Below are positions 742 to 28,724 of a stretch of DNA of 64,000 nt, one piece after another. Source of the stretch: Octopus sinensis (taxonomy: Eukaryota). The translations under genes and the position numbers were made by a program. Under the pieces are notes generated by a model. That model saw nothing but the letters and a program-made list of their open reading frames with translations, did no database searches and was not told where the DNA came from. The first letter of the stretch is position 1. Every line of letters begins with the position of its first letter. The DNA lies in NCBI RefSeq assembly GCF_006345805.1, contig NC_043007.1:5022001-5086000 (forward strand), given 5' to 3'.

Positions 742-3700
742 CTGGAAATAAAATAAAATAAAAAAAGTCATTAAATTCTTTTGTTATATTTCTTTTTTCT
801 TTACTACCCACAAGGGGCTACACACAGAGGGGGACAAACAAGGGCAGACAAATGGATTAAGTCGATTATATCCACCCAGTGCGTAACTGGTACTTAATTT
901 ATCGACTCCGAAAGGATGAAAGGCAAAGTCGACCTCAGCGGAATTTGAACTCGGAATGTAGCGGCAGATGAAATACCGCTAAGCATTTCGACCGGCATGT
1001 TAACGTTTCTGCCAACTCACCGCCTTATCTTATATTTCTGTCGAAATACACTGCTTTCATTTAAATTAATTTTGAAAATTATTAAGAACTTCTGTAAGAT
1101 CAACTAAAAAGGTACTCTATCAAGAGAGACAGAGAAATGAATATTATTTAATGTATACAATATAAAGATAACGTGGCCGTTGCCAGTGCTGCCCCGACTG
1201 GCTTCCGTGCCGGTGGCACGTAAAAAGCACCATCCGATCGTGGCCGTTGCCAGCCTCGCCTGGCCTCCGTGCCAGTGGCAAGTAAAAAGCACCATCCGAT
1301 CGTGGCCGTTGCCAGCCTCGCCTGGCCTCCGTGCCAGTGGCACGTAAAAAGCACCATCCGATCGTGGCCGTTGCCAGCCTCGCCTGGCCTCCGTGCCAGT
1401 GGCACGTAAAAAGCACCCACTACACTCACGGAGTGGTTGGCGTTAGGAAGGGCATCCAGCCGTAGAAACATTGCCAGATCAGACTGGGCCTGATGCAGCC
1501 TTCTGGCTTCCCAGACCCCAGTTGCACCGTCCAACCCATGCCAGCACGGAAAGCGGACGCTAAACGATGATGATGATGATGATAAACTGATAGTTTCCTG
1601 CTGGAGGTTTTTATAACATGCTTTGTGTCTCCAAGCAATCTCAGGCTCTGAGCCTATGGCCTATTTAATTTTTCAAACAGGATGCTGGAAGAAGAGAAAT
1701 TAGAAGAAAAAAATGAGAAGGCAGAAGTGGGAAAATACATGAGAAGAAAAGGAAAGAAAGAGAATTAGAGTTACACACACACATGTTTATGTAGGTACAA
1801 ACAATTTGAGGTATCAAATTGTTGGATCAGGAGATGAAAGTCAGGAAGAGGGTCACAGCCCAACTAATTAGGGAGAGAGAGAGAGTCTAGATGAGATACA
1901 GTTTGGTTTTGTGCCAGGGAGAGCATCACTGGTGCTATATTTCTGGTAAGGCAGCTGCAAGGAAGATAAACCTCTGTACTTGGCTTTTGTTGACTTGGAG
2001 AAAACCTTTGACGGGGTCCCCCGATCCCTTATCTAGTGGTCAGTGTAGAAACTAGGGACAGACAAGTGGTTGGTGAGAGCTGTACAAGCCACGTACAGGG
2101 ATGCTGTCAGTAAGGTGTGGGTTGACGAGTACAGCAAAGAATTCAGGGTATGGGTAGAGGTTCACCAAGGATCAGTCCTCAGCCCCCTCTTGTTCATCAT
2201 AGTCCTCCAGGCATTAACAGAGGAATTTAAGACAGGCCGCCCCTGAGAACTCCTCTATGCTGCTGACCTTGTTCTTATAGTTGAATCACTACCAGAACTG
2301 GAAAAGTTCCCAGCATGGAAGCAAGGCCTAGAATAGAAGGGCCTTAGAGTCAACCTAGCAAAAATCAAAGTTTTAATATGTAGGAAGGTAGACAAATCAC
2401 AAATGCCTTCAGTATTGGCTCTACTCAATCAGTAGAAAAGGCATAGGTAGAAACTCCATAAGATGCACTCGGTGTAAGCTATGGACCCATAAGAGATGCA
2501 GCAAAATCAGAGGAAGATTAAGAGGGAAAATAGCTTTTGTGTGTGGAAGATGCACAGGTAGAATAACTACGGAAAAATGTAGAGAAAATACACTCCATCA
2601 CATGCGAATGGGGTAAGCTAAAGGTAGTCAATAGCTTCCATTATCAAGGTGAGCTTGTATGATGCCAGTGTATGAACAGCCATGCTACATGGCAGTAAAA
2701 CATGAGCTGTGGCAGCCAAGGACATGCGTAGGGTTGAAAGAAATAAAGCCAGTATGCTTTGCTAGATGTGTAATGTCAGTGTGCATGTATGACAGAGTGT
2801 AAACATTTTCATAGAAAAGTTGAGCTAAAGAGGCATCAGATGTGGTGTGCAAGAGAGATGACTGCACTGGTATGGTCATGTGATGTGTATGGATGAGGAC
2901 AGCTATGTAAAGAAATGTCGATCTCTAACTGTGGAGGGAACCTGTGGTAGAGGTAGACCCAGGAAGACATGGGAGGAGGTGGTGAAGCATGATCTTTGAA
3001 CTTTGAGCCCAACACTTGAAAGGAACTCAGCCACTTTGTCTCCATGAGGCCCAATGCTCGAAAGACCTTTACATGCCAGTTATGTGACACCAGCGTTGGC
3101 CATGACTATAATTTCTCTTGACTTGGTGGGTCTTGTTAAGCGCTGCACATCGCCAAGCTAAGCGAAATCGTAGTCATGGCTGATGCTGGTCTCACATAAC
3201 TAGCACCTATGCTAGTGGTACATAAAAAGCACCTCTTGAATGTTGGGCCACATGGAAGCAAAGTGGCCAATGTCGGTGGAACGTGAAGAGCACCTTTCAA
3301 GTGTTGGACCTCATGGAGAGAAATGACTGAGACGTTTGGCTAACGTTTCTGCCAGCTTGCACACACACACACACACACGCATGCACATTAAAGAAAGATT
3401 GAGAGATTCGGGTAACTTACCGTGGTGCAAGCATCATACTTGTGTTACTAATGAAACCATTGCTAAGTCCCAGGAAGAAGATGATTATTCCTGCAGCATA
3501 GTCGTTGTCAAACAATACAGTCATGTGTTCACGTGGTTGCACATTGCACAGCATTATCAGCGGGATGAACACCAGGCGCAGCAGTGCAGTAATTAGGAAC
3601 AACGTCGAAGATTTTGGTTTGAACAACTGAAAGTTAGATTTTTGACATAAAGGCCATTAGATGAGGTATCTACTGTAGTAGTAGTGGTGATGGAAACAGT

Positions 3701-5081
3701 GGTAGTGTAAGTAGAAATGGAGGTAATTGTTAGTAGTAGTGGTAGTAGTTGCAGTAGTGGTAGTAGTAGCAGTAGTAGTAGTGTTGGTTAGTAGAAGATA
3801 ACATAGGAAGAAGAGAGGAAGTTTGTGTATCACAATCCATCTATCATATCAATCAGTCTGTCTGTCTGTCTCTCTGTCTATCTTTCTATATAGCAAGTGA
3901 GAGAGAGGGGAGAGATAGATAGATAGAGAGAGAGAGAGGAGATATAAATAGATAGAGAGAGAGGAGATATAAATAGATAGAGAGAGAGAGAGAAAGGTAA
4001 ATTTCTAGTTTATAAAATCAATACAAAGAAAAAGTTTGATTTTCTTTCTTACTTTTTGAATACTGCTCTATTTAATTATATTTTAATGTAATTAATATTT
4101 TTCTCCTAAAATTTACTATTCATTTCATTATTTTGCTTAAGCACCTACCAATTTGATTAAAGTTAAATCGTAATTATTGTGTGTCTGCCATATTTCCTGA
4201 TATTACTCAGTGAAACAGATGTACACGTTCAGAGTCACTGACACGTAACACTTCAGTCTTTTTATAAAGCTAGAGGAACAAAAATCAACGCATGAGTGGG
4301 CGTAAAGGGTGGCGGCTTGACTCATTGCTAGCCAAAGGGTCGAGAGACACAGAGTGGCACGAGTTTAGAATTTCTTTCCTTTATATAAGGGATGGACCAG
4401 AAGTCCCTGATTTCCACGTAAACCGGAAGCTTCCAGAAAGGTCTCGAACATTCTAGAAGCTCGAGGGAGATTACTCTTATTAAATCCCTTTTCTGTTTTG
4501 CTTCCCATCAAAGCCATTTAAAAAAAATATTTTTATTATTTTTAGAATAAATTTAAAGGAAATCTATGTATTTCAGCAGAAATATGGTTACAAAAGAATT
4601 AAAATAGTAATAAAGCTGATAATGAAGATGATTATTGTTTCGATGGTGGTGGTGATGATGATGATGATGATGATGATAATTCAGTTGATAAATAGATCAA
4701 CTCACAGATAGATGTCTACCTTCAGAAAGACTGATAAGCAATCATTTGGACATAGAAATAGACAGAAAGGCAGACAGATAAACAGTCACACACATATTAG
4801 GCCCATTAAGACACACATGTATGAGCAATGTCTACTTACAAAACGAGTTTTGCCTGCGATGATTCTCCCTAACAAGTCTGTCACGTTGAATACTAAAAAG
4901 TTCACAACTGGACTATAGAACCGTTCTGAAAAGAGAGAGAGAAGAAGAAGAAGAAGAAGAAGAAATAAGCAGATTGACAGAGGGGACTGGCCTACATCAA
5001 TACATTGAGTTAAATTGCTATGTCCAAAAATAGAAGTTAACAATCATTCAGAATAACATTGTTTTCTTGATACAAATTATA

Positions 5082-5155
<74 letters not shown>

Positions 5156-5196
5156 TACATATATATATATATATACATATACATAATATATATATA

Positions 5197-5254
<58 letters not shown>

Positions 5255-5336
5255 ATACATATACATATATACATATGTATATATATATACATATACTATA
5301 TATATATATACATATACATATATACATATACATATA

Positions 5337-5367
<31 letters not shown>

Positions 5368-5471
5368 CATATATATACATATACATATATATAATATACA
5401 TATATATACATATACATATATATATACATATACATATATATACATATACATATATATACATATATATATAT

Positions 5472-5516
<45 letters not shown>

Positions 5517-8500
5517 TATATATATATTATATATCTTCATCATCATAATCATTTAACATCCGCTTTCCATGCTAGCATGGGTTGGACAATTTGACTGAGG
5601 TCTGGCGAACCAGACTCCAATCTGATCTGGCAGAGTTTCTACAGCTGGAGGCCCTTCCTAACTCCAACAACTCCGAGAGTGTAGTGGGTGCTTTTACGTG
5701 TCACCGGCACGGGAGCCAGTCAGGCGGTACTGGCAACAACCTCGCTTGAATGTTTCACGTGCCACCAGCACAAGTGCTAGTAAGGCAATGAGGGAATGAT
5801 CACGCTCGAATGGTGTGTTTGACATGGCATCGGCACGAAGGCCAGCTTGTTGCTCTGGCAACGATCTCACTCGTATGGTATATATATATATATATATACA
5901 TAGTTAATCCAAACAAGAAAGCACAAAAAAACACAACAACGCGCGGACGTGGAACAAATATAGTATTATTGGACGCTCAGGAAAGAAGGAAAGAAGGAGG
6001 GTTTAACGTTTCGAGCGGAGCTCTTTGGCGGAAACATAGGAGAAGGAAAGATCCAGAGAAGGGAAGACAGAGGAAAAAAAATCGCCAACGGTACACACGA
6101 GGTCACATTTTGAAAGACCAGATATATATACACATATATAAGGCACATGCTTGGCTGTGTGGTTAAGAGGTTTGCTTCCAACCCAATCATCTTGGATTTA
6201 GTCCCACTGCATAACACTTTGGGCAAGTGGCATCTACTATAGCCCCAGGTCCACCAAAGTCTTGTGAGTAGATTTGGTAGATGGAAACTGAAAGAAGCCT
6301 GTCATGTATATATATATATATATATATATATACAAGGTGCGGTGAATAAACTGTCATCTAAATTGAGCAAAAATGAAAATAACACTGACATCTCATTTTA
6401 ACAGATATATCAGGTCATCCCATAAGTTCCGTCCGATTTTACCTTTTTTAAAATTGAATGAAATTTAATAGTATTTTAGAATGTCTAATGGAATTAGAAA
6501 TTATTTTTATGCATTTGTGTACAGATAACACAATTAAATATTACTTTACAGAATAATATAATTAAAATTTCTTTGATTAAAACCCTTTTTAACATGGAAG
6601 TATTCAAAGACCATTTAAGGCACATAATGCTTTATGAGTGAAAAAAAGGAAACTCTGCAGCTGAAGCGACTCGAAACATACACTCAGTTTATGGGAAAGA
6701 ATGCTTGAATGAAAGAACTTGCAGAAGATGGTTTTCAATATTTAAGTAAATTTATTCAATAAAGTCGCCATTGGCTTCAACCACAGCCTCCAGACGACTT
6801 TGGAATCTCCTGCAACTCTTATGGATGGTCTCCTTGTTTAAGTTGGTGAATGCAGCCATAATCCTTGCCTTCAGTTCATCTTTGGTGTTACAAGGAATTT
6901 TGTTGGTCATTCACTCAACTGCACCTCAAACATAATAATCAAGGGAGTTAGGTGGCCAGATGTTAGGGATGGTGTGGTCACAGAAATTGTCTGACAGCCA
7001 TGAGTGGCATGGTGCAGAGTCCTGTAGCCAGGCATAGGGTATTCCAGCAGCCACCCACTTCACCCAGGGTAGCACTACTTCCTCCAGGCATTTGATGTAG
7101 GTCACCGTGTTGAGTTTGAGGCCGTGTGGGAAGATGAATGGAGGCATAATGTCATCATCACTCCTGGATGTTCACTGGATGTACTCTCGGTACATATCCT
7201 CAGATTGCACTCTCCTCAAATTGACACTCAAACACTCTGAAATGTTTGTACTGGAGCTTCTGGTGTGAATGCCAAGCAGTACAGCATGTAGTTTTCAAAT
7301 TTCTGGCTGAGTGAATTGCATCATGGTGCTTTTTTGCTCATACATGGTGCCCATCTGACCCTACTATACTGCATAGTCAACAAATCAAAAAAAATAATGT
7401 GCATACATGAAACTAAAAGTACAAAATGGTGACAGTTTACCCATCGCATCCTGTATAGTGTGTGTATGTGTGTGTGCACATGCGTGTGTATGTGTTTGCG
7501 TGTAATGATTGTAAATGAGCATCCCCACCATACAAGCGATGTTGTTTGTTGCCAGGCTTCCAAAGATTACTTTGCTTGGAAACAGGTGAGGGTTGGTGAC
7601 AAGAAGAGCATCCCAGCTGTAGAAAATCTCCTGCAACAAATTCCATATGACCCATGGAGGAGTGCAAAAGTGGACGTTAAGTGATAACGATAATTAAGGT
7701 AACAGATAGGAGGCACCTGTTCCAATGAAATATCTTTGGCAATGAGAACAGAAGTGGGCACAGCCAGTTTTGTATTTATAAACACTCATCAAGGATCACA
7801 TTCTTTATCTCTCAACTGCCACAGTTAAAAATATATCTCACAGAAAATGTAAGCAAACTAGTAAGGACTTAAATAAATTTACATAATGGTATAAAGGCAC
7901 AACCATGGTCAAGTGGTTATGAAGTTGTAGTGACGCTATTTTGGAAGTTTCAGCGCACATGTGCAGAGTTGGATTACTTCCAGTAGGCTGCAGGAAGTTC
8001 CCTCGTGCATGCGCAGGAACTGCAAACTGAAAGCGTTCCCACTAAATCTTTCTTTTTGGAAGAGCAGCCCTAACGAGTGGACATGAAACTTCTCTCAGGG
8101 AAAACCCTACACACAGAGAAGCTCTCTTCAAAGTGGGAACAGAGACAGTATCTTCTTGGCTCACACAAGTGAACATTTATGAACAGTCTTGTGGACTTGG
8201 CTGCCGGTTCGCCCTTAAGGAAAATATATGTATATATTTTTATCTGTGAAACCCGGAAAATCAAGTGTTATTTATTGCTATTGAAGACAGTCGGATTTTG
8301 GTTCTTTCTTCGACAATTGTATGTGACAAGATAAGACAGACACCCCTCAAGTGTTCCTGAGACCATCATCTTGTTACAAAGTTTTTCCATAACCCTTTCA
8401 CATAACCTCCAAAGCAGAAGCAGCATGAATCAGATAAAATCAAATTGATGAGTCTAGTCCAGGTTTGTAGTTTCCATCAATCCAATTTCACTAATTGCCC

Positions 8501-10297: not shown

Positions 10298-13200
10298 GAG
10301 GCGCAATGACCCAGTGGTTAGGGCAGTGTACTCGCGGCCGTAGGATCGCGGTTTCGATTCCCAGGCCGGGCGTTGTGAGTGTTTATTGGGCGAAAATACC
10401 TAAAGCTCCACGAGGCTCTGGCAGTGGGTGGTGGCGATCCCTGCTGTACTCTTTCACTCTTTCTTCTGTTGGCCTGCTCACTTAGCCAGCGGGGTGGCGT
10501 CATTTGAAGGCTAATACAATGAGAAGCGCATTGTGTGTAGAAACATCTGATAGCCTGGTCGGTCATGGTGATATATATATATATACATGTATATATATAT
10601 TGGGTGATCCCATGAATAATGTGTTTTTTTTTATACTTATTTTATTTTTCAAAATTATGATAAACAAAGTTCGTTTTTAATCTAAAATATACTCTCCTTC
10701 ATTTTCTGCAATACTTTTCCATCTATCTGGTAGACTTGCAAGGCCCCTCTTCCAAAATTCACTTCCCCGTCATGGAAAATACTCATCTACTACTATTCTG
10801 ACCTCATCTAAGACAACATATTTTTTTTCTGTCCAAATGATTTTGAAGACTGCAGAATAAATGGTAATCAGATGGGGCAATGTCTGGCAGGTGGGCATCG
10901 TTCCCCATTTAAACTGCTCCAGTCTTTGGAATGTGATCCTCGCTGTATGTGGCCGAGCATTATCCTGATGGAAGAACACCTTTTGTCTTGAAACCAGAGA
11001 TGGACGTTTTTCTTCATGTGCTGACTTAAGCCACTCAAGCTGCTCACAATAGATTTCCTTTGTCATCATTTGGTTTAGGTTTAAAAGTTAAAAGTGGACT
11101 AAACCTTTCACATCCCACCAAACAGATAACAATACATTACGTGGGTGAAGACCTTCTTTAGCCTGGGGTGCTAGAAATACTCATTCTGTTTATGGAAATG
11201 AAGCTTTAAGTGTCCAGAAAGGCCAATAAGCATTTGGCTAACTTTGCTTGGAAAATTTTTCTTTTAAAGATTCCCCTTGATCTAGATGACCAAATTTTGT
11301 TAATATGGAGTTTTAGAAAACCATACTTGAGGAAAACCCAAAGCAAACTTTGGGTTAACAAAACAATTCAATTTAAGTCACACTTCAATTATAAAGCACT
11401 TTCATGAACAACGAAATGTGTCTAAACCTATTTCTTTACTACCCACAAGGGGCTAAATACAGAGGGGACAAATAAGGACAGACAAACGGATTAAGTCGAT
11501 TATATCGACCCCAAAAGGATGAAAGGCAAAGTCGACCTCGGCGGAATTTGAACTCAGAACGTAGCAGCAGACAAAATATGGCTACGCATTTCGCCCAACG
11601 TGCTAACCTTTCTGCCAGTTTGCCGCCTAATGTGTCTAAACCTGGTCAGCGGGTTCCTGTGTTGTCTATCTGGACCCTGGCTCTGTAAACTACACCTATA
11701 ATTACACAATCTTGGTCTTTGAAATTACATTTCTGGTTGTTTCCTTCAGTGGTGCCAATAGTTTTGTTTGGTGTTTTTGTGTTATGCTGGTTTATTAGAG
11801 AGGTGAAGTTCTTGCAACAAGAACAGCTAACCTTACAGATTCTTCTATCAAAGATTCTATGGTATTTATGACAAGTTGGAAAATGTCTTGAGACTAAACT
11901 AAAAAGTTTTTTGCCTACATTAATTCAAACAGTAGCACTGAAGTTTCGGTTGAACAACAAAACCTTTCTAGTCCTAATCCTACATGCTCTATTATGGCTA
12001 CAGTCACTACAAATATACTGGATCCCCTCCGAGAATCCACTGCTATGCGGAGCATCATTATAGAAAGGGACAGCATTTTGAAAAGTTACTTTGCCTGAAG
12101 ATAATGATAAAATCCACCTCCCAGTATTACTAACCATATTCCATGGCTTGTAGATGCTAACTTTTCTCTTCTATAAATTTGGAACTTTGTACTCTATCAG
12201 TAAAAATAAGTCACCTACAGAGAATACTCACTGTATGTCTTGTTAACAAAACAGTACTTACTTTTAAAAAGACACTCCAGATACTGGACTGAACTTGGCG
12301 TTTATTGATTATTTTATCATTTTCATGGACATCATAAATATAGGAACTACCTGAAAAAAAAATGATAAATAATAACAACAACAACAATAATAATAATAGA
12401 GGATTTGAAGAGGGAAATACGAAGGTTGTGGTCAATGAGGAAAGTAGACTGAAAAAGATTGGTGAAAGTGTGAAGGTAGAACACCTACAAAAATGAGCAT
12501 TGCTTGGAATTGCAAGAATTCTTCGTAGGATTCTTGAAGCATGACCAGTAAACAAGTGTCACCTGAGTCTGCTGGCTGTGGACAGCTGACACTTTCCATC
12601 ATAACCAGCAAAATAAACTGTGTGTTTTCATATAATAACAACAACAATAAAAATCCTTTCTATTATAGGCACAAGGTCCGAAACTTGGGGGAGGGGGATA
12701 GACAATTACATCAACCCCAGTATTCAACTGGTACTCGTTTAATCGACCCTGAAAGGATGAAAGCTAAAGTTAACCTTGGCGGAATTTGAACTCAGAATGA
12801 AGCAACAGGCGAAATAATGCTAAACATTTCATCCACTGCACTAACAATTCTCTCAGCTGCCTCCTCTTCTTCCTCCTCAACAACAACAACAACAACACTA
12901 ACTCCTCTATGCTGATGACCTTGCTCTAATTGCTGAGTCACTATCAGAACTAGAGGGGAAGTTTCAGGTGTGGAAGCAAGGATTAGAATCGAAGGGCCTT
13001 AGAATAAACCTAGCTAAAACCAAAGTCCTAATAAGTAGGAAGGTAGACAAACCACAAATCCCTTCATGTAGATGGCCCTGCTCAATCTGTAGAAAAGGCC
13101 GAGGTATAAATTCTATAAGATGCACCAAGTGTAAGCTATGGACACATAAGAGGTGCAGCAACATCAAAGGAAGGCTAACTGGGAAGATAGTTTTTGTACG

Positions 13201-16200
13201 TGGCAGATGCTCAGGAGCAATAAATAACACTGAAAATGTGCAGAGAACAACTTCCGCCACATTTCAGGGAGAAAAACTAGAAGTAGTTGACAGCTTCCGT
13301 TACCTAGGTGACCAAGTCAGTAGCGGGTGAGGGTGCCAAAGTCTGCTTTCCATGCTGGCATGGGTTGGACAGTTTGACAACAGCTGGCAAGCTGGAGAGA
13401 TGCACCAGGCTCCATTCATCTGTTTTGGCCCGGTTTCTATAGCTGGATGCTCTTCCTAATGCCAACCACTTTACAGAATGTATTGGGCGTTTCTTTCGTA
13501 GCCCCAGCATGGGCGACTTTTATGTGGGATTAGCATGGGTACTTTTTATGTGGCACCAACCATGTATGAAATGTATATATTCATATATGCAGGAGTTTAT
13601 AAGATGTAATGTATGCATGTGTCTGTGTGTGTGTGGGGGGGAGATAGATATACAAACAAAGAAGGAAATAAAAAAGCTGGCACCCGGGTGGCTGCAGCGA
13701 TCGGCTTTCCAGTTGATTTGATCACCAGAACCACCTGCTTGAGAAATTAATGTGAAAGTGGCTGAGCGCATCACAGACAGGCATACACTTAACATGGTTC
13801 TCAGGGAGATTCAGCGTGATACAGAATGTGACAAGGCTGGCCCCCATTGAATTACAAGTAGAGCACATATTTGCCAGCTGAGTGGACTGGAGCAATATGG
13901 TGCAGCCATCTGGTTCGCCAGCCCTCAGTTAAAATCGTCCATGCTAGCATGGAAAGTGGATGTTAAACGATGATGATGATCATCATCGTCATCATCAGCC
14001 ATCCATTGTCCATACTGGCATTTATAAATATATATGCTTATGTATGCATGCATGTATGTATGTGTATGTGTGTACCCTTGTTCTGAAGACACATGTTCTA
14101 ACGGTTAAGGTGTTTCACTCATGAGAATCAGATTGTCAGTTCAATTCCTAGACCAGGCAATGGGTTGTGTTCGTGAGCAAAACACTTAATTTCACATTGT
14201 TCTAGTGCTGTGTGGTGACCACCATGCCAAAGAATAGATGCAATATTTCCCTTGCACTTCATAAAACCTTCACCACCAACAACAATCCAAACAGACCCAT
14301 GGGTTGCTGAGCACTTCACAGACGGACATACACTTAACATGGTTCCCAGGGAGATTCAGCGGGATACAGAATGTGACAAGGCTGCCCCCCACCCCTGAAT
14401 TACAGGTAGAACACATATTTGCCAGTTGAGTGAACTGGAACAATATGAAATGAAGTGCCGATAGACACAATGCTAGGAATTGAATCCATCACCTTACGAT
14501 TGTGAGCTGAATGCCCTAACAACTACGCTACATGCCTCCACGCACACATGCATGTGCACACACACACATCACATCACATCCAACAGGTTGCTGCATACAT
14601 TCTGCCTGTTAAATGGCCAACTTAAGGCTATGATAGAAAACATTCTGCTTTAGGTGCCATTAGGATATTGAACCTGGAACCATGGAGCTGTGAATGCAAC
14701 TTCTTAGCTACACAGCCATGCCTGCACCATAGGTTTTCTCACTATATTGAAAAAAAATCAATAATGATAATAACGAAATTATTGTATACAGTGCTCAGGT
14801 GCACCACAACTTGTCAAAAGTACATATAAAGCATATGCAGTAATGTACAAATGTCTGGAAAGTGAACAGTGTATGAGTCAGATACATGCTTGCGTGTGTA
14901 TGGAGGGGAGAAAATCAGGTGTAGTGTTGGCGAATCTCAGGAAGCATGGAAGGTTTGAAGGATGCAGTGCTCCAACAACTAACAACTGATGCCGGCAGTT
15001 TGTTCCATGCTTCAGCAACACAGCGTGAAAAAATGTTTCTGAAAGTCATGGGAGCTGTGCTGTTTTCTGACTTTGTAAACATGTCCACGGGTGTTAGACA
15101 GGTGGAGTTTGGAAAGGTGCTCAGAGTTATTGTTTGTAAGATGGTCAATAATTTTATGGGTGTCTGCCAAGTCAGCTGCCAGACGTCGGAGTTTCAGTGT
15201 GTCCATGCCCAGGGAAGTAAGGCGTTCAGAATATGGCAAATGCCTGATGGAGGGTATTCTCTTGGTTGCATGACACTGAACAGCTTCCAGACGATTAATA
15301 TCCTGGGCAAGATAGCAAGCCTTCTTCTTTGCTAGCTTGGCTAGAAACAGATTTTGTTTGTTTGTTGTTTGTTCTGAGACAAAATACTTTTACATGAGAG
15401 TACACAATAAATAAATAACTTAAAAGTGATTTTTTTTAAATGTTTAATTTATTTTGTTAATTATGAATAATTATGAAACTTACCCTCTCTGAATATATAA
15501 TATCTTGAAAATTCCTGAAAAATTTTAATAGATAAATAATTAATAATTCTTTCTAATTTTGGAATAAAATTTTGAAGGGAAAGGGCAAGTTAATTAAGAT
15601 TTTAATTTTGGAACAATTTATTTCAAAAAGTTTAGAAGTATGTCTACCAATTTTATAAATAAAGAGTTCCTAGCCACAGGGTTCCAGGTTCAATCCCACT
15701 GCGTGGCGCTTTGGGCAGGTGTCTTCCGCCACAGCCCCGAACCGACCGAAGCTTTGTGATTGAATTCGGTTGGCGGGAGTTACTGCCGTGTGTGTGTGTG
15801 TGCGTGTAGGCGCTCAGTGCCTCTCCGAAAGAAAGAGAGGGAGTAATTTTTACAAAATAAACACAAAAAAGATAATTGTCTACATCCTCACCATCACTAC
15901 CACAACACACACACCACCACCACCACTTTTTTTGAATAACTTATATTCTATATGTACAAACTAAGCCATTAAAAAAAAGGGAGTAAAAAAAGAAAAAGAA
16001 AACATGCGAAGAAAGAGAAGAAATATGGCAGTAAAAGTAAAAGGAAATGGCAAATTATTGAGATAAACATGACTTACCAATTTGTATAAATAGAAATATC
16101 CAAAGAAGGTTAAAATGGTGACTAGGATAGCAATTATGAAGTATAGGAGAGCACTGTCTGTAACTGAAGGAAGCGTAGCTAATGCCAGGATATTTGCCAA

Positions 16201-17939
16201 AGAAGCAAATGTTCCACCGAGAGCCTTGAAGGAGGAAGAAAAGAAAAAGAAAAGGAAATTAGAGATAATTTGCATTTTTAGATAGAAATATGGATCTTAA
16301 TTATTATTGGTTTCAAATTTTGGCACAAGGCCAGCAATCTTAGGGGAGGGGTTAAATTAATTACAATCACCCCAATGCAGCGTGGAAGGTGTTTATAAGC
16401 CATTTCAGAAACACACAAAAACCATTAGATTCACTTCAACATTTAAATATAATTTGTCAAAATATTTTCGTTGCTTTGAGACCGTGACCTGTTCACTGAC
16501 AAAACTTCGTGCTGCATCAAAATGTTTTGACAAATTAAATTTAAATGTTGAAGTGAATCTAATGGTTTCTTAAATGGCTTATAAACATCTTCCACGCTGC
16601 AATTGTTTTCGTTCCAGCACACGATCTCAGATCAAGTCACTCGCTATGCAAGTGCATCTCCGTAATGACCCCAATGTTTAACTGGTACTTAATTTATCAA
16701 CCTCAAAAGGATGAAAGGCAAAGCTGAACTTGTCAGAACTCTGTAGATGGATGAAATGCCACTACGCATTCTGCCCCAGCGTGCTAACAATCCTATCTGC
16801 TCACCCCCTTCATCTTAACTAAGAGTTTTTGACATCATAAAATCTGATTTTTATAAACTTTTGAGTAAACATGAAATAATTGTGTTTTGGAACAATGGAT
16901 CTTGAAACACACATAAAGACATAAATGGTAGCATTAAATACTGGGTTGAAATCCCTTTTGGATAAGAGAAATTCATGGCTGCCTATTGAAAAAGTGTTTT
17001 TCAACCTAATATTTCCATGTTACGTTTTTATTGCTATCGTTTAACGTCTGCTTTCCATGCTAGCATGGGTTGGACGATTTTGACTGAGGGCTGGCGAACC
17101 AGACGGCCGCACCAGGCCCCAATCTTGATCTGGCAGAGTTTCTACAGCTGGATGCCCTTCCTAACGACAACGACTCCGAGAGTGTAGTGTGTGCTTTTTA
17201 TGTGCCACCGGCATGGTGTCAGTCAGGCGGTACTGGCAATGACCTTGCTCGAATCTTTTTACACATGCCACCGGCACAGGTGCCACTAAGGCGATGCTGG
17301 TAATGATCACGCTCAAATGGTGCCCTTTTATGTGCCACCGGTACGGAGCTAGTTGGCTGCTCTGGCAACGATCACGCTCGGATGGTGCTCTTGGTACCCT
17401 ACTAGCACGGGCACAAGTGCCAGTAAGGTAACAATCACAGCTGTTGCATAATTTAGTTGCAATCCTTCTTGGTTTGATTTCAAATCCCACAGAGGTCACT
17501 GTAATGGGAGATTACACAAAATTGATTTCTAACATGCACAAGTCCCTAACTTTGAAAGAAAGGGTATATGGTCCCTTATAACGATCCCAATACTTGATTA
17601 GTAACAATAATTTGTAGAATTCAACCTCTGAAGAAACTTGAAACCAGAATGTAGAAATGTAAGAAATTATTTGCAAAACATAGTCAGTGGTTGTGCTGTT
17701 TATTGTCACCTGTCTTCATTTGTAAGCTTTTATTGTTGACACTTACCTGTCCACCCATTAAGGCATTGATGTATTTCGTTGGCATTATACTGGCGAAACC
17801 AAGGGCCGTGGCATTCAATACAGCAGATGATCCTGGTAAATAAACAGCAATGATAATGATTAGGTATACTAAAAGGGGAAAAATTATCCATATGTAAAGA
17901 TCTGAAAATAGAGATAACATGAGTGAGGGGCGAAAAAGT

Positions 17940-17978
<39 letters not shown>

Positions 17979-20900
17979 TGATGATGATGATGCTGATGAC
18001 AATGACGACAACATGATGACAGTGGGTAACCTATTTGGAATTGAAAAAGATCTCTATGACAGTGAAAGCTGAAAAACATGACTATGTAGAACAAGAGGGA
18101 ACGAAACAAGAAAGAGTAATAGCTGTGTGAAAAAGTGTCACAGCCTAGCAGTTGCGGGAAACTGTGGAAGAGGTAGACCCAGGAAGACCTGGGATGAGGT
18201 GGTGAAGCATGACCATCAAACATTACGCCTCACTGAGGCAATGACTAATGACCGAGACCTTTAGAATTATGCTGTGGTTGAGAAGACCCGGCAAGCCAAG
18301 TGAGACCATAACCCGTGGCCTATGCCAGGGATGTAACCAGCCCACTTATGTGTTCCTTTCCTTCTTTGGACACTAAACTCTGCTTGCAAAGACCTGTTGA
18401 GGCAAGTGAAATCGAAATCAAATTCAATGACAACACTGCATGACTGGCATCCGTGCTAGTGGAGCGCTAAGAGCACCATCCGAGCGTGATCGTTAGCAGG
18501 GCCGCTGACTGGCTCCCATCCCAGTGGCACGTAAAAAGCATCATTTGAGCATGATCATTACCAGTGATGCTTTACTGGCACCTGTGCTGGTGGCATGTGA
18601 AAAACAACATTTGAGCGAAGTTGTTGCCAGTGCCACTGGACTGGCTCCTGTGCAGGTGACACATAAAAAATACCATTTGAGTGTGGCTGTTGCCAGTACC
18701 GCCTGATCAGCCCTCATGCTAGCTTCTTCTCTCCTTTCCCAGTTGGGCCAACAGCAAGTTATTGTCTCTCTGTTATCCACTTGCCTTTCAACACCTGGCA
18801 TAAAGCCATCTCCCTCAGTCGAGGGACCATGTCTTAAAAGTTACTTGGCAACTGCACTAGTGTTGGTGATACGAGAAAACATCCAGCACACTCTGTAAGA
18901 TGGTTGCGATTGGGAAGGGCATCCAACCATAGAAACAATACCAAAAACAGACAATAGGAGCTTGCTACAGTCCTTTGGATGGTTGGATTTTGTCAAACCA
19001 TCCAATCCATACCAGCATGGAATGCAGATGCTAAATGTTGAAGGTGGTGGTGATGATGATGATGATGATATAAAGCTAGCTCGTTTTCCCACAGATAAAC
19101 AAACATGAGATAACAAAAAAATACTCACCACTTAGAAATATTATTGTCAAGAGAACAATGACGAAAAATGCAGTTTGATCTAGAATAGAAAATGGAGGAG
19201 AAAAAAAAAGACAAAATTATTAATTTAAAATATGCTCTTTATCTACAGAAACTGAATGTGGGAACCTCTAGAATATGAGTCATGAGCAAGTACCAGCTTG
19301 CAGGACTTTCTGAATGGCATACCTAATGGAAAATCACCTTTTAGTAGTGTGGGCCATGTCTCATGTGGTCCACTTCTCAAACAAGAAAGTGTGCATGCCT
19401 GCTCTAAATGGTTGCTCTTGCAAGAAATAGCATCCAAATCTCCCACATATCACACCCTACTGATAAGGCTCGAAAGAAATGAAGCTGGATGTGTAATGTC
19501 AGTGTGCACACACGACTGAGTGTAAGCGCCCTGAGAGAAATGGTAGACATAAGAAGCATCAGATGTGGAATGCAAGAGAGATGTCGGCGTTGGTATGGTC
19601 ATGTACTGCGGATGACGAGGAGAGTTGTGTGAAGAAGTGTCACTCCTTAACAGTGGAAGGAACCTGTGGAAGAGGGAGCCCAGGAAGACATGGGATGAGG
19701 TGGTGAAGCTTGACCTTCGAATGTTGGGCTTCTCAGAGGTAATGACAGAAGACCAAGACCTCAGGCGATATGATGTGACTGAGAAGACCCGGCCAATAAA
19801 GTGAGTCCACAGCTGTAACCTACACCTGTGTCACATAACCAGCCCACTCAAAAGTACCTTGGATTGTAGGGTGACATGCCGTGCTTGAGGAGATCTATTG
19901 GGTCAAGTACATCAACATCAACAGCAATATCAAAATCAAATCAAATGGAAATTGTAGTTGTGAGCCCCCTGCCAGTAACACATAAAAAGCACCATCCGCA
20001 TGTGGCTGATGCCAGAGCCGCCTTGACTGGCTTCTGTACCGTTGGCATGTAAAAAGCACCATCGATTGTGGTCAATGCCAGCTCCTCTGGCCCTTTGTGC
20101 CAGTGGCATGTAAAAAGTTCCCACTACACTCTCAGTGTGGTTGGCATTAGGAAGGGCATCCAGCTGTAGAAACACTGCCAGATCAGATTGGGACCTGGTG
20201 CAGCCTCCTGGCTTCCCAGACTCCAGTCAAACCTTCCAACCCATGCCAGCATGGAAAACGGACGTAAAACGATAATGATAATGATGATGATTAGATCAAT
20301 AACTAATTTGTCTATCTATTTGTCCCTTTTGCCACTACACTTAGTGACGAGAACAGACGAAAAGTGGCTGACATTTAGAGACATTTAAGAGAATGATTTT
20401 GAAAGACATTAATGTCACAAGATAAACAGACAGATTGGAAGCTAGCTAGAGAGAGAGAGAGAGAGAGAGAGAGGGGGAGATGGTTGACACATTTCTGGAG
20501 TGTAAGTCTTCTTTATATATATATATATATATATATATATTTTTTACTTTACAATAGGTTCATTTAAAAAGCTTGCTTCCCAACCATGTGGTTTTGGGTT
20601 CATCCTTGAGAATGTATCTGGCAAACAGAAACTGAACGAAGCCTGTCACAATATCATCATCATAATCATTTTAACACCCACTTTTCTATGCTTGCACCTG
20701 TCAGATGAAGTTTCAGGTAGATTTTCTACAATCAGATGCCCATTGTGTTGCCAATCCTCACCTGTCACTTAGTAAATGTAAATGGAATACAGATCCCAGG
20801 TAAATTACCCTGCAAGACAGGTAAAATACAAATATCCTTTGCAGAGTTATGAGAAATTCAGAGTTTTTGAATTTCACTAATTTTGGGTAGCCTTGATAAT

Positions 20901-23900
20901 GTTGTGTTAACATATATTTTCAAGGATATTAATATTAATTTTAACGTTTTTTAGATATATATGCATATGAGCGTATATATATATATATTTTTTTTTCTCT
21001 CCTTGTTTTTTTCTGTGTCCCTTTCTGTAGAAGAGCGTAGGCTCGAAACGTAAAAGACTTTTTCTATTCCTGAGCGTTATACTAATACATTTGTTTGTTT
21101 GTACTCCACCTGCCTTCGTCTTTTGTTTATTTTCGTAAACTTTCCTTTTATATATATATATATATATATATGCAATAGAAACAATTGTCAGCTTTATAAG
21201 GTGAGATCTATAATCTATATATATATAAAACAAAGGATGTCTGTGTGTGTAATATGCATTTCTAGTTTTCAATTGATTTTCACCAAACTTTACACACACA
21301 TTACTTATATGCCATGGATGGTCATGCACTATAACATTTTGCTTAGAGCTCCCAATTAATGTGGCAAATTGACCAAGAAAAAAATTTCCGTACATGGGTT
21401 TTTCTCAAAAACAAAAAAAAAAGCTGTTTTACAGTCAAATTCTCTCTCTTCGACTTCTGCAGTTTTCAAGCGATTCTCTCCCTTCGACTGTTGTACTTTT
21501 CAAGCAATCATCCCACTTTTTTTTCTCTCTCTCTCTCTATTTATCTCTAATTCTGTTTCTCACTTTCACATATAGATATCTGTTTCTTTCACTCTCTCTC
21601 TCCCTCTGAAAATTGACTTCAGTGTTATTTCATATTTGTCTTCACTGTTTGTACGTCACATTATTTATTTTAAATTTTCTCCACTCAGGCTCCAGTGTCT
21701 GCTTCGGTATGATTATTGTGGTTGTTCCTAATGCCAACCACTTTACAGAATGTATTGAGAGCTTTTTCCATACCAGCAGCCCTAATGATGTCATCGTGCA
21801 CCTTGCATGATGACATCATATGACCCCTGACTGAGAAGCTTTGTGCTAGATGAGGGATAAACGGATGAGAAAAGGGGGAAGAGCAGAACATGTTTTATTG
21901 CTGTAAAGGAGTCACATTTTAAAAAAGAGGGTGTGTGTGTGTGATGGGTTTCTGTAGTTTGCCTCTACCAGGTATGGGTCAACTTGAGGCTATAAAACAA
22001 AATACTTGCTCTGTGTGTCATGCAATGGTGTTGAAGCTAAAACCCGCACAAGCTTTTGGATGTAGGAGAAAAAAAAACATTAGAAGAAGCTTCTTTTTTT
22101 TATAAAAAAAAATTTATTGATACTTACAAGAGTTTGTATTGACCTTCACAAAACTTACAGTCAGCCCAAGCAGTAGCATTATCGATACGAATGACGTAGT
22201 GAAGCGGGTCTTCATGCCAACACTGAAAAAGAAGAGAAGAAAATACTTTATTATTATTATCCCCAATGCCACCATCATGATCATCTTTATTACCTATTTC
22301 TTTGTTACTCACAAGGGGCTAAACACAGAGGGGACAAACAAGGACAGGCAAACGGATTAAGTTGATTATATTGACCCCAGTGTGTAACTGGTACTTAATT
22401 TATTGACCCCGAAAGATGAAAGGCAAAGTCGACCTCGGCAGAATTTGAACTCAGAATGTAATGGCAGACGAAATACCACTAAGCATTTCGCCTGGTGTGC
22501 TAACGGTTCTACCAGCTCACCACATCTTTATTACCATCATCATCATCATCATCATGATTATTAGCTTCACCACCACTACTACAGCAACAAGAACAATATG
22601 GTGGATTGACAGAAACTTTGGAGTTTCAGACAAAATTTTTGCAGTATTTAATTACAGCCTATTATATTCTGAGTTCGAATCCTGTTGGTCATGATTTGAA
22701 ATTCACATAAATCAACCTAGAAGTGGTTGGGAAACAACAGTCATTTTGAAGTCTCTTTGATGTGTCCATAAACTTAGGGACAAAATGGCACCTGTCTGTT
22801 GTTTCTAAATACAGTGATACCCAGCATGGCTTTCGACCAGGTAGGAGCTGCCTGACCCAGCTCTTACAACATTATGACTGGGTGTTGAGGCAGTTACTCA
22901 ACAACTCAAATGTGGACGTAATGCACCTTGATTTTGCAAAAGCTTTTGACAAAGTGGATCATGGTATGATATGCCATAAACTGCGTGACCTTGGCATAGC
23001 TGGAAAACTTGGAGTGTGGTTACATGACTTCCTGAAAGATAGGAGTCAGGCAGTATTGGTTAATGGAGCCACCTCTATGAACACACAAATGCCCGGATAG
23101 CCACTCTGGCAAGCTATGCAGACAATATGAAAGTCTCGCAGAAAATACAGAACCCCAGCGATGTTGCACACCTGCAGCAGGAGTTGGACTCAATCTACAG
23201 ATGGGCTGAGGATAATAATATGCAGTTTAATGCTGAAAAATTCCAGGCCCTGTGCTACCAGCATCCAAAACTGAATATTAAACTTACAGGATACACCGGT
23301 CCACAGGGAATTTCAATTCCAGAGCCTAAGTCTGTGAGGGACCTGGGTATCGACATGCATGATGATACCTCTTTCCAAGTGCACATTGCCAGGATGGCGA
23401 CAAAGTGCAGACGACTGGCTGGGTGAATCCTAAGAACATTCAGAACCAGAGATAAGGAAACCATGATGGTCCTCTGGCGGACATTCGTCCTCAGCCACCT
23501 GAATTACTGCTCACAGCTATGGTCACCCACCAGTGTGAAATTAACAGCGGACCTTGAAGCAATCCAGAGAAGATTCACAAAGAAGATCGTCTCTTTGCAA
23601 CAGCTCAGCTACTGAGAAAGGTTGAAACAGCTAAGACTCTACTTCCTGGAGAGAAGACGGGAGAGGTATGCTGGACCTTTTCCTATCGAGAGTCCCAGAT
23701 GAACCTACCTCACGGCAAGAGGTGCAAATGAGGGTAGCTATATCAAACTCCATTCTTCACCAAGTGCCACATATTAGAAGAGGCTCTCAGTAATAACTGT
23801 AGCAAAACGGTGGTGCACCAGCATGGCCACAGCTCTGAGCTGAAACTACAGAAAAAAAAAAAAAACCAGTATTTTCTGCAAGTAATATTGCCTCAATAAA

Positions 23901-26900
23901 CTTGACATATCTCAACAGAAAATAGTTTCAAAAGTAACATTCCTCAACAAAAGACAGATTGGTGTAGAGAACTGCGTTTTGCATTGTAGATTAATGAAAT
24001 TTTGAGAAGTTTTGTTTGATTTCTGCACTAAAAAGATTAAATACAGTTGTCAGGTACATGATAACAAACTTCAGGTGAAGTATATTCAAATTATCATGAC
24101 TAGTATCAATTTTGGTGCCAGAGATATGATAAATGGTTCTGGTATAAACTTACCTATTTCTTTACTATCCACAAGGTGCTAAACACAGAGGGGACAAACA
24201 AGGACAGACAAACGGATTAAGTCAATTACATCGACCCCAGTGCGTAACTGGTACTTAATTTATCGACCCCGAAAGGATGGAAGGCAAAGTCGACCTGGGC
24301 AGAATTTGAACTCAGAACGTAACGGCAGACAAAATACAGCTACGCATTTCGCCCGGCGTGCTAACGTTTCTGCCAGCTCACTGCCTTTTGGTATAAACTT
24401 ACCGTTTTACAATTATTACCACAATTATATTACAGAGGACGTTTGAGACTGTTGCTGAAACAGCAAGGGAACTTTCAAAGTACTGTTGCAATGGTGTAAC
24501 ATCTGACATGTTGCCGGGCAGTGTTGTGTTTCTTAACTTGAAGTGAAAATACTGCAAAATTCAAAGAGAAATAGAATCGTTAAAAAGTTGCCATTGTTAA
24601 GGCAAAGATAAGTCAGGCAATTTATAAGAATTTACCTTAAAAGCACATTTTAAGATAAACCCTTGTAATAATAATAATAATAATGTAGCTACTATTTTAC
24701 CGTTCATTATTCACTCATACAAACATGGTTTGGACTGGTGCACACTGTATGTTTGCTGTTGTAAAGTTTATTAAGAATGGTGAATGAAGGAGATTTTTCT
24801 GCTGCATCTTTTAGCCGTGAAATAAACTTCTAAACCATAGAACTGTACTCACACAACATGTTTGGCCATGGATTATATGAAACCCAGTACCTCTTACTAC
24901 GGACATGACCAAGCATTCAAACGTCCCACTCCTGTCAGCATGGAAGGTGGGCATTAAACAATGACAATGATGATTGTATCAATTATTTCAGTCAAAACAC
25001 ACTCTTTCCATTCCCAAACAACCCCTCTGGAATCCACCCCCTGCCCATCCTTTTCCTGAAGTTGTCAAACTTTGCTTAACCCATTTGGTACCAACCTGTC
25101 TAAAACCACCTCTGGCTCTGAGTACAAATGTCTTGTTTTCAAAAGTTCTGAATTAAAATCTTCCACCAAACCTTAGTCACAATTTATGCTCCTAATAATA
25201 GCTTAGTGATAACTAAGTTATTTTACTAAATTCTTTGTTATATTCAAAATGAATTGAAAGAAACACAGAGCATCTCGAAATAAATACAGTAACAAACGGG
25301 TTAAAGAGCCTGCAGAAGCTGTGAATACAACCGTTTCCTCCAGACCAAAACCTTAAAAATTAAATGCAGTTTCTAGCTGTCCTTAATCTACCTGAAAGAC
25401 CTGAAAGACAAACAGTACTACTAGCAGTACTCCTGCTGAGGAGGTTAGCAGAAAAAATATTTATTCTAACAGTATAAATGCACACATATTCTCAACCCCA
25501 CAATTAAGGGTTAGGGACCTCACACACAACCTGTTCATTGTGTCTTCAAGATCTCTTCAGGATGAACAGGTTAGTGGGCTTCAAGTTCTCATTTGGCATA
25601 ATTTGCTGTCAGGGTTGACTAACTCAGCCTTTAACTCTTCACCATTAGTAAGGGTTGCCCCTTTTCTTAGTTCGGTTTTCTGTTAAGGTTGCTAAATCAA
25701 AATTGCCTGGAACAGTTTGAATGGGAAATGAAGCCCAACCCCCACATATTCGCCATACATTGCTCCATCTGATTATCATTTATTCCGCAGTCTTCCAAAT
25801 CATTTGGAAGGAAAAAAATATGAATTCTGTAGTTAAGATCGGAACAGAACTGGAGGAGTATTTTATGTCACAGACAAGAGAATATTGGAAGTGGTTTCTT
25901 GCAAGTCTACCAGGTAGATGGAAGAGCATTGCAGAAAACAAAGGAGAGTATATTTTAGATTCAAAAAGAACTTTATTTATCTTTATAAGCCTTTTAAGAA
26001 ACACACAAAAACCGTTAGATCCACTTCAACATTTAAGTTTAATTTGTCAAAATATTTTCGTCACTTTGAGACGGTGACCTGTTCACTGACAAAACTTCGT
26101 GCAGCACAAAGTTTTGACACAAATTAAATTTAAATGTTGAAGTGAATCTAATGGTTTTTGTGTGTTTCTTAAATGGCTTATAAACATCTTCCATGCTGTA
26201 ATTGTTATCGTTCCAGCACACAATCTCAGATCAGGTCACTTGCTATGCAAGTACATCTCTGTAATTTATTTATCTTAATTTTAAAAAAAAACACATTATT
26301 TATGGGATGACCAAATAGAAAGGATTACTAAAGCAGGTGTTTGGAAAATAAATTAGCAAGAGGTTTGAATTGCTTTAACCAGGAAGTTTGTCTGAGAGAA
26401 CTGGATGTGGCATCAGGTACATTGGTAACGAAAGGGTTAAATATACTGCTAAGTGGATAAGCAGTCAGGATTACCAGACAAAAGAACTAATGGCTTTTAC
26501 AATGTCACTAAGTACAGAGATGCACATGGTCCTGTTCCTGTATTATTTAGACTCAGCAATTACAGTATACAGGAATCTCTCTATATATAAATGGCAAAAT
26601 GTCTGTGTGTGTGTCCTTTATACAAATCCACAATTTTTCAGTTAGAGGGCTCGTACTTTCTATGGTCATTCAAAACCATCCAAGGGTGGTCGTGCATATC
26701 TTTACATTTCCCCAGTCACCCCGCAAAGCCATTAAAAAATCAATAGAAGTGACATTTTTGTGAATTTTCTATCCAAAACCCAATCAAAATGCCCGAAACG
26801 TGATACGCCAATTGAATGCCAGCTAGCTGCATGTGATTGGTCGGAGATTTGGACAGTACTCGTGTGTATGTGTGCACGCATGCAGCTGTATATGCATGCA

Positions 26901-28724
26901 CTAGCACTATGACCCGGCAACGCTGGGTCATAGTGCTAGTATTGTATAATTAATGAGTTTTTCATTAGCTTACATTACTGAATTTGAGTTGGAACACTGC
27001 TATGCACATGCACACACACACACACTCGCTCGCTCGCTCACCCACCCCTGATTAAAAACATACTCAAGAGATTATATGAAACTAAGTATAAAGTGTGAAA
27101 TCCTGGCAACAACAACAACAGTGACAATAGCAACAAACAAACAAACAAACCAACCTTTTCTCCTGTGATAAAAAAGTTCCATGGCAAGAGAGTGGTAACC
27201 CCTAACAAATAAGTTATTATATAAACCAAATGATATCTGAAAAAAAGATGATAAAAAAAGGAAATTACCAGATTAATGTGAGAGACAGAGAAAACAATAT
27301 AATACAAAAAGAAAAAAACCACAAAAATAAACATACACTTGCACAAGTATGTTCTTTCTTTTATTCTTTTACTTGTTTCGATTATTAGACTGTGGCCATG
27401 CTGGGGCAGTACTGCCTTGAAGACTCTTTAGTCGAATGAACTGATCCCAGGACTTATTTCAGTCTCTTTTGCCAAACCGCTAAGTTAGAGGGACACATAT
27501 AAAACCAACACTGGTTGTCAAGCAGAGGTGGGGGACAAACACAGACACAAAGACTCCCCTCACCATATATATATATATATATAATATATATATATCAATT
27601 AATTAATAATTTTACCACGTAGATCGGTTATGTTAAAATAACCTTCTTTGGTAAAATTACACTAATATTCTATAATTATAATTAGGGGTCGGCTAATTGC
27701 TTCACCACATACCAATGACGTTTCATCATGTACATATTTAACCCTAGCATTTTCAAATTTTATATCTGAAAAGCTACACTGATGATGAGAAGTAAGTAAA
27801 CACACTTTAATCTCGAAAAGTGTATGTGGCAAATTGGAGTCGTGTGGATTCATTATTTTTCTCTTTGCCTACGTAAAAAAGTGTGTTATTGTCTGAGAGA
27901 TTCTTACGGTAGTAGGAAAGGAATTTTTAACTCCTATTTCTAAATTTGGTACGTGGTGAAGCAATTAGCTGACCCCTAATTATAATTATGCTTATAATTA
28001 TAAAATGTTTGTATATATAATGGTAGAAAAGATTTGTCCAAAGTACCACACACAGGGACTGAACCCAGAATCACGTGGTTCGGAAGCAAATAATTTACCA
28101 CAAAGCCATGCCTACACCTTTCTCCAAGATGTCTCTCCAGTGAAATCACACCCAGAACAGAATCAATTGTAAAGGAAACAGCTTTACTACTACACAGACA
28201 TAACTGCATCCATGGAAGGTAAAAGTTGATCCTGGTGGAATTTGAACTTGAAACTTAAAGTCTAAAATGCCTTACATTTTATTTGCTCCATGCTCAACCA
28301 TTCTTATCATTTCCAGCTAGAAAAAATTCATTTACATAGTGAAGTTGTGATACCTGTGCCGGTGGCACATAAAAAGCACCATCCGAATGTGGCCGTTGCC
28401 AGCGCCGCCCCGACTGGCTTCTGTGCCGGTGGCACATAAAAAGCACCATCCAAACGTGGCCGTTGCCAGTGCCGCCTTGGCTGGCTTCCGTGCTGGTGGC
28501 ACGTTAAAAGCTCCGACCGATCGTGGCCGATGCTGGACCCCCCTGGCACCTGTGCAGGTGGCACATAAAAAGCACCCACTACACTCGCGGAGTGGTTGGC
28601 GTTAGGAAGGGTATCCAGCTGTAGAAACTCTGCCAGATCAGACTGGAGCCTGGTGCAGCCCCTGGCTTCCCAGACCCCGGTCGAACTGTCCAACCCGTGC
28701 TAGCATGGAAGACGGACGTTAAAC

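Follow-up and report, generated by a model that had tools for sequence, protein, structure and literature searches.

Endonuclease-bearing (EN+) Penelope-like elements (PLEs) share an architecture in which an inverted, 5′-truncated pseudo-long terminal repeat (pLTR) occurs together with a single terminal tail (Craig et al. 2021, PMC8557442; Arkhipova et al. 2013, PMC3846280). Published accounts of how these inverted pLTRs and one-sided tails arise are sequential nicking with a variable target-site duplication (TSD) and antisense self-priming. PMC8557442 attributes the variable TSD to sequential nicks, the second of which follows target-primed reverse transcription (TPRT), whereas PMC3846280 prefers self-priming on an antisense template. 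It was also reported that PAc, a Poseidon element of Anolis, cuts both target strands in vitro and that both are extended (Frangieh et al. 2024, PMC11167929), and pairs of hammerheads on opposite strands, 100-700 bp apart, have already been described (Cervera and de la Pena 2014, PMC4209133). Further prior knowledge is contained in PMC6765202, PMC2377424, and PMC13282606. Here, we consider a window of 64,000 nucleotides from Octopus sinensis (contig NC_043007.1, positions 5,022,001 to 5,086,000, numbered below from its first letter), which contains two related fold-back insertions, copy 1 at 16376-16666 and copy 2 at 25982-26266. Their arms are the pLTR and the first ~30 codons of a PLE with reverse transcriptase (RT) and GIY-YIG domains, which is present as a whole elsewhere in the genome.

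These repeats are short head-to-head insertions of this EN+ PLE, and it is quite probable that each was built afresh at its site by two reverse-transcription events. The architecture itself is already published: as in PMC8557442 and PMC3846280, there is a head-to-head inverted pLTR, a one-sided tail, and a pLTR plus tail holding the first codons of the open reading frame (ORF), along with TATA-like and initiator-like signals, (TA)n targets, and palindromic joints. However, the tail is ~60 nt here and 30-40 nt in the EN+ PLEs of these papers, and the TSD peaks at 12 bp, whereas it is variable in PMC8557442 and cases of 8-10 bp are given in PMC3846280. No paper on twin priming in PLEs was found by title or abstract. 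The octopus family supplies numbers that can be assayed, namely a single start site for each strand, a stagger of 12 bp, a single source for the arms, and a defined 5′ end of the RNA.

The parent element and its short derivatives

The RT and GIY-YIG ORF was reached via loci with upstream sequence, and it has the same sense as the hammerhead motif of the pLTR. One locus (L251) has the order pLTR-ORF-pLTR, with direct pLTRs and one frameshift (ORF at 2657-5871, across two frames). Two other loci (L253 and L254) carry direct pLTRs plus an inverted one and, together with L096, represent the three-pLTR inverted forms. Open frames of 1,042 residues (L338, without a start) and 722 residues (L096) are also present. 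RT, CX3CXXC linker, and GIY-YIG motifs are visible in the translations, and a CCHH motif as defined in PMC8557442, in which GIY and YIG are separated by a segment containing two cysteines, can be read by eye. A Pfam GIY-YIG match (E 3.6e-5) was obtained on a fragment (L094); 277 homologues were found, and Atlas neighbours carry RVT_1 and GIY-YIG. The features of an EN+ PLE are present in the family: a single RT/GIY-YIG ORF, direct and inverted pLTRs, a one-end tail in the ORF start, and a sense hammerhead in the pLTR. By the criteria of PMC8557442, the CX3CXXC linker, together with the (TA)n preference, would point to the Neptune or Nematis type, although the motifs read DKS and PKF here as against DKG and GxKF/Y in these clades.

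The tail consists of codons ~11-31 of the PLE ORF. The right arms of both window copies translate to the ORF start, and in full elements the ORF continues beyond the right end at which these copies stop. The ORF may be borne by either arm (L094 versus L253).

Exact matches to a 24-base arm pattern indicate at least 9,199 arms in the genome. Loci were taken as the 30 best BLAST matches, 30 by hammerhead core, 30 by upstream sequence, and 90 by 5′ start; in addition, a position-ordered sample (the first 100 listed of the 9,199 places, all on contig 1) gave 40 two-armed pairs. Removal of duplicates left 127 head-to-head pairs and 99 single-armed loci, with multi-match loci that formed no pair being omitted. 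Arm positions are numbered on L252, position 1 being the A of an ATG that follows an AG upstream of the hammerhead.

A second abundant PLE group (L339-L357; ~40% protein identity, some members with asparagine-rich N-terminal stretches) gave no hammerhead by descriptor in its 19 loci, several of which may be without a pLTR, and no covariation from divergent relatives was obtained. At L252:8271-9347, the full-length copy of the family is adjoined by an ORF that belongs to a different PLE and includes the RT thumb, the linker, and a GIY-YIG-like end, and a near-perfect fold-back of ~38 bp occurs at L096:2320-2400, where the ORF arm is 5′-truncated.

Outer ends, target sites, and joints

The arms stop inside the PLE ORF near positions 141-150 (site 1, ~147) or 204-209 (site 2, ~207). 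With one arm end required at 135-160 and the other at 190 or beyond, site 1 is paired with site 2 in 113 of the 127 pairs; like is never paired with like (0/127), and one or both ends lie elsewhere in 14, including copy 2. The same pairing holds in 38 of the 40 position-ordered pairs. Single-armed loci (n = 99) end at site 2 in 58 cases, at site 1 in 31, and elsewhere in 10, and since they stop at site 1 as well as at site 2, the former would be a start site in its own right. Judged by sequence, both outer ends are reverse-transcription start sites, and by analogy they match the two internal start sites between which the tail of the anole PLE lies (PMC11167929). PAc resembles the octopus family further in the position of these sites in the ORF start, in its AT-rich cleavage, and in that hammerhead cleavage appears dispensable. 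However, PAc is of Penelope/Poseidon type, while the octopus PLE protein has the CX3CXXC linker, and neither the use of one site per strand within an insertion nor a fixed stagger is reported for PAc in the available text of PMC11167929. Extended pairing between primer and template was considered and rejected: its mean is 1.7 nt for site 1 and 1.3 nt for site 2 versus 0.5 nt in the control, values that TSD calling inflates (~0.9 nt expected by reasoning), and the microhomology is only weak.

TSDs outside microsatellites were called in 61 of the 127 pairs, with lengths of 12 bp in 26, 13 bp in 13, 14 bp in 5, longer in 4, and shorter in the remainder, i.e., 12-14 bp in 44. Mismatched flanks, used as a control, gave calls in 56 of 300 cases, 50 of them of 7-9 bp, and a length of 12 bp in 2 of the 300. 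In a hand tally of exact TSDs of at least 10 bp, 22 of 42 measured 12 bp, and the 36 exact TSDs of at least 12 bp fit a length of 12 bp with chance extension (p 0.13-0.89). The duplicated sequences are 84% AT, and a dinucleotide microsatellite lies on both flanks in 30 of the 127 pairs, the targets being AT-rich or (TA)n. Because the stagger is nearly fixed, paired nicks would fit better than a second nick made after TPRT.

The two arms of an insertion come from a common source. Their identity is 93% within an insertion and 89% between insertions; at eight non-CpG diagnostic subfamily sites, arm concordance is 0.84-0.92 versus 0.33-0.65 expected, and rare variants are common to both arms in 35 of 233 cases, compared with 71 of 9,150. 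At CpG sites 9, 10, 33, and 46, the arms agree no more often than by chance, which argues against continuing gene conversion.

The centres are variable, with 34 distinct ones among the 40 position-ordered pairs. The sole recurrent centre occurs in at least eight copies that have their flanks in common too, and these must therefore ride inside another repeat. Joints (n = 114 pairs) comprise 28 overlaps, 28 blunt joints, 46 short fillers, and 12 long ones, and some of the overlaps fall in hammerhead stem I or in the palindrome. Of the position-ordered pairs, 35 are independent; 17 of these have a tailless arm that extends further toward the 5′ end, 12 have a tail arm that does so, and 6 are ties, with no significant bias (p 0.46). 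In the former 17, each arm has sequence absent from the other, so that no single fold-back copy could account for both without further deletion.

Tailless arms often stop right at a sharp 5′ boundary (position -1 in 8 of 40). Genome-wide, 1,776 exact matches, tandem ones included, reach the AG before the ATG, and the native TC comes next in 634 of them; in the other 1,142, the base before AGATG is G in 751, A or T in 267, and C after A, C, or G in 124. Another 803 matches are without the AG. A TATA-like run lies ~30 bases upstream of the boundary, and in several single-armed copies the extra G is common to the target. RT can copy a cap, and the halt of many copies at one A with an added G suggests a short capped RNA, with the cDNA putatively ended by this cap or by an added C. 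Acceptor-like and branch-point-like sequence is also found just upstream of the hammerhead, at the boundary AG. No spliced copy or shared upstream exon was seen in the 90 loci chosen by 5′ start, and the contigs of four runs, which are only guessed to be RNA and cannot show starts, contained no listed joint at this AG. An origin by RNA polymerase III was ruled out by reasoning, on account of several internal T runs.

Several unusual insertions were observed alongside these. The recurrent centre belongs to one two-armed insertion that was amplified as a passenger in a dispersed composite repeat (L025, L042, L045, L234, L249, L277, L302, and L305) and that makes up 5 of the 40 position-ordered pairs; its right flank resembles a putative Helitron-type end. 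Five pLTR fragments at L091-L092 (G000:C2:2027102-2038662), 2.5-3.2 kb apart, are passengers in a tandem segmental repeat without a PLE ORF. At the centre of another two-armed insertion (L093:1892-2538; G000:C2:187272407-187273005), about ten tandem 64-nt units are present, in each of which the initial ~55 nt of the RNA, leading G included, are combined with a short inverted piece; the cleavage segment is absent, and the array looks like repeated template re-entry. The animal non-LTR retrozymes (bioRxiv 10.64898/2026.07.22.740005) are likewise PLE-derived, hammerhead-bearing, and non-coding at the locus, but they are described as direct tandem units without an ORF, whereas the present repeats are inverted stumps of an autonomous PLE. 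Assignment to the retrozymes was rejected on the grounds of inverted arms and a coding PLE origin, the tandem of L093 being a single local case.

Two primings or one

In the course of events considered probable, the RT-EN protein, probably as a dimer, would nick both strands ~12 bp apart, and each 3′ OH would prime a cDNA on sense RNA of a single source, with one cDNA beginning at each start site, such that the 60-nt tail would be the distance between the two sites. The cDNAs would then be extended toward the 5′ end of the RNA, often as far as the capped start just upstream of the hammerhead, and their 3′ ends would be joined by microhomology, fold-back, or filler, sometimes via stem I of the hammerhead or via the palindrome. 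The hammerhead would be carried along within the pLTR, and its cutting would not be required. In the twin priming of L1, both target nicks also prime cDNA and the inner ends are joined by microhomology; however, the two L1 cDNAs are made from neighbouring stretches of the RNA that do not overlap, whereas here both copy the same ~145 nt. A stricter version can be advanced only tentatively, as a real possibility that we do not favour: priming may be concerted, with a dimer on one capped RNA, a fixed 12-bp stagger, and two starts 60 nt apart, in which case the tail, the inverted pLTR, and the TSD would be one footprint, and thousands of copies would contain an active natural G3:C8 hammerhead.

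Several observations weigh against two primings as set out here. The whole mechanism is read from genomic junctions, and the tail arm reaches further 5′ in 12 of 35 pairs, which a fold-back route explains too. TSD calls fall below 12 bp in 13 of 61, and single-armed copies have no clear 12-bp peak (3/23). An arm has its own partner as its nearest relative in only 14 of 113 cases, which means that a common source, rather than a single molecule, is shown, and a single RNA molecule is not distinguishable from two RNAs that come from the same locus. The eight near-identical passenger copies are inside the variant counts and may inflate the sharing of rare variants. In the assay of the anole element, the start sites are alike on both strands, and the strict pairing is not predicted by that alone (PMC11167929). 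In addition, a Pfam search with the two long PLE proteins gave no significant match.

The chief competitor, though an unlikely one, is a single priming followed by self-priming, in which the second arm would be copied from a folded-back cDNA (or from a folded-back antisense template, PMC3846280), with later deletions eroding the centre. Short fold-back fillers and palindromic joints are indeed common, variants are common to both arms, and it is the tail arm that is more complete in the minority of pairs just mentioned; however, the pairs in which each arm holds sequence of its own, the tailless arms that stop exactly at the sharp 5′ boundary, and the single-armed copies that end at either site speak against it. 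The contents of the arms fit two primings better than the self-priming preferred in PMC3846280. A variant of the double-priming model, in which two RNAs of one locus are dimerised via the palindromic stem III of the hammerhead and one is copied per nick, appears improbable. The AAUAUU palindrome is conserved, a modelled dimer would pair through it, and minimal hammerheads of PLEs were reported to act as dimers (PMC4209133), but such an arrangement is symmetric and gives no reason for the absence of like-with-like pairs.

The preliminary description of the window copies had proposed target-primed retrotransposition of a hairpin RNA that resembles inverted PLE pLTRs, and not a miniature inverted-repeat transposable element (MITE). 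Target priming, the tie to inverted PLE pLTRs, the hammerhead-type junction, and the dismissal of a MITE are supported, and the autonomous PLE with these arms that it called for is found in the genome (L251). In contrast, a SINE-like (short interspersed element), non-autonomous hairpin that moves as a unit, primed at its right end and 5′-truncated at its left, is now highly improbable: the group of at least eight copies with an identical centre would fit it, were it not that their common flanks make them passengers, and elsewhere the centres vary, both outer ends cluster at two preferred sites within the ORF, the TSD is nearly constant, and the right end runs on into the ORF in full elements. 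As a unit for the family, it is refuted by variable centres with independent flanks. The description had also held that fixed ends with TSDs of constant length would indicate a DNA transposon. This state is nearly reached, and inverted arms, clustered ends, and a near-constant 12-bp TSD all recall a fold-back transposon or MITE, yet the element is a retroelement. One arm exceeds the other by the 60-nt tail, the family includes single-armed and ORF-bearing forms as well as direct repeats, the sequence belongs to the beginning of an RT-GIY-YIG ORF, and the centres are variable; with the RT parent element refuting it, this explanation has practically no probability left. In annotation, stumps of this kind are readily mistaken for MITEs or for microRNA (miRNA) hairpins.

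The hammerhead motif and the window copies

The junction in the pLTR is a predicted minimal type I, dimer-type hammerhead with a natural G3:C8 swap. The motif of copy 2 consists of a 7-bp stem I, G3-U-G-A-A-C8-A9 with one extra G, a 5-bp stem II, GAA, the palindromic AAUAUU, and U17, a weak cleavage site for hammerheads. The elements of a minimal hammerhead are thus recognizable, i.e., a core in which 3 and 8 form a Watson-Crick pair, stems I and II, and a palindromic stem III. Like the metazoan PLE hammerheads of PMC4209133, it is of type I, lies in the pLTR, and is palindromic at 15.2-16.2, and it has the extra base after A9 (between 9 and 10.1) and the G10.1-C11.1 pair described there; however, the natural cores in that paper are C3:G8 and U3:A8. 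Among 64 arms, G3:C8 is found in 62, the exact core in 53, and the exact block from GAA through the palindrome in 50. Descriptor matches in both pLTRs of L251, in L252, and in L338 place G3:C8 in full elements as well. In a young family, such conservation is not proof of selection.

Rfam gave no hammerhead family at E <= 5, and the best of its five sub-threshold matches is an miRNA family. In the literature searched, which did not extend to supplements (e.g., the alignments of PMC4209133), no report of a natural G3:C8 hammerhead was found. In the anole PLE, cleavage is partially recovered by an engineered G3:C8 double swap (PMC11167929), and G3:C8 is also an engineered variant in PMC3884650. 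A natural hammerhead of this kind would escape C3:G8 descriptors. Hammerhead cleavage was rejected as the cause of right-arm truncation: these arms start at various positions from 37 to 65 and further on, and no accumulation is seen at 59, the predicted cut, where only 3 of 114 tail arms start.

Copy 1 and copy 2 (Table 1) form the related fold-back pair that had been noticed in the window, and a long hairpin is predicted on the minus strand of copy 2 (fold z = -12.9). Their common right end stands as originally described. The left ends do differ, with that of copy 2 being ~16-20 nt shorter, but this short end is an exception in the family. As for the TSDs, given earlier as 9 and 12 bp, the latter is exact, while the former is ambiguous and the family peak lies at 12 bp. 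The inversion centre quoted for both copies belongs to copy 2 only, copy 1 having a different, blunt joint. The hammerhead-shaped sequence of copy 2 was recovered as the one descriptor match in the window, with none in 30 shuffled windows, and what had been called its atypical core corresponds to the compensatory G3:C8 swap. Its restriction to one arm holds for the window, where neither right arm contains it, but not for the family: the hammerhead start is retained in both arms of 13 position-ordered pairs, in one arm of 22, and in neither of 5 (n = 40). A left-arm bias in 29 of 29 top BLAST matches was dismissed as a selection effect of the query.

Table 1. Features of the two PLE-derived insertions in the window
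Feature	Coordinates	Strand	Description	Basis
Copy 1, left TSD	16365..16377	+	Exact over 9 bp (16369-16377); 13 bp if one mismatch is allowed	
Copy 1, tailless arm	16376..16518	-	PLE pLTR positions 0-142; ends at start site 1	BLAST of natural pLTR reference
Copy 1, minimal hammerhead	16453..16503	-	G3:C8 core intact; two mismatches in stem II	
Copy 1, tail-bearing arm	16519..16666	+	Positions 50-207, less a deletion of 10 bp; PLE ORF start codon 16574; tail ~16607-16666	
Copy 1, right TSD	16664..16676	+	Target is a SINE-like repeat, present too at 22373 and 24233	
Copy 2, left TSD	25972..25983	+	12 bp exact	
Copy 2, tailless arm	25982..26106	-	Positions 2-126; end ~20 nt inside the usual site 1	
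Copy 2, predicted minimal type I hammerhead	26043..26093	-	Predicted cut between 26050 and 26049	
Copy 2, centre	26097..26119	.	End of the left arm folds back briefly; the sequence then switches to the right arm, beyond the ribozyme core	
Copy 2, tail-bearing arm	26112..26266	+	Positions 56-208; PLE ORF start codon 26173; tail ~26206-26264	
Copy 2, right TSD	26265..26276	+	12 bp exact	

The repeat that hosts copy 1 is SINE-like. Other repeats of the window include arrays of ~66-bp units (18441-18704 and 19957-20117) with inverted relatives at 17126-17411, which belong to an abundant host repeat family, and a MITE-like candidate at 27672-27989 with 44-bp inverted repeats that are 95% complementary and 230 bp apart. 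In addition, an open frame of 142 residues at 12902-13330, starting with an RT-type YADD motif, is probably a fragment of a long interspersed element (LINE).

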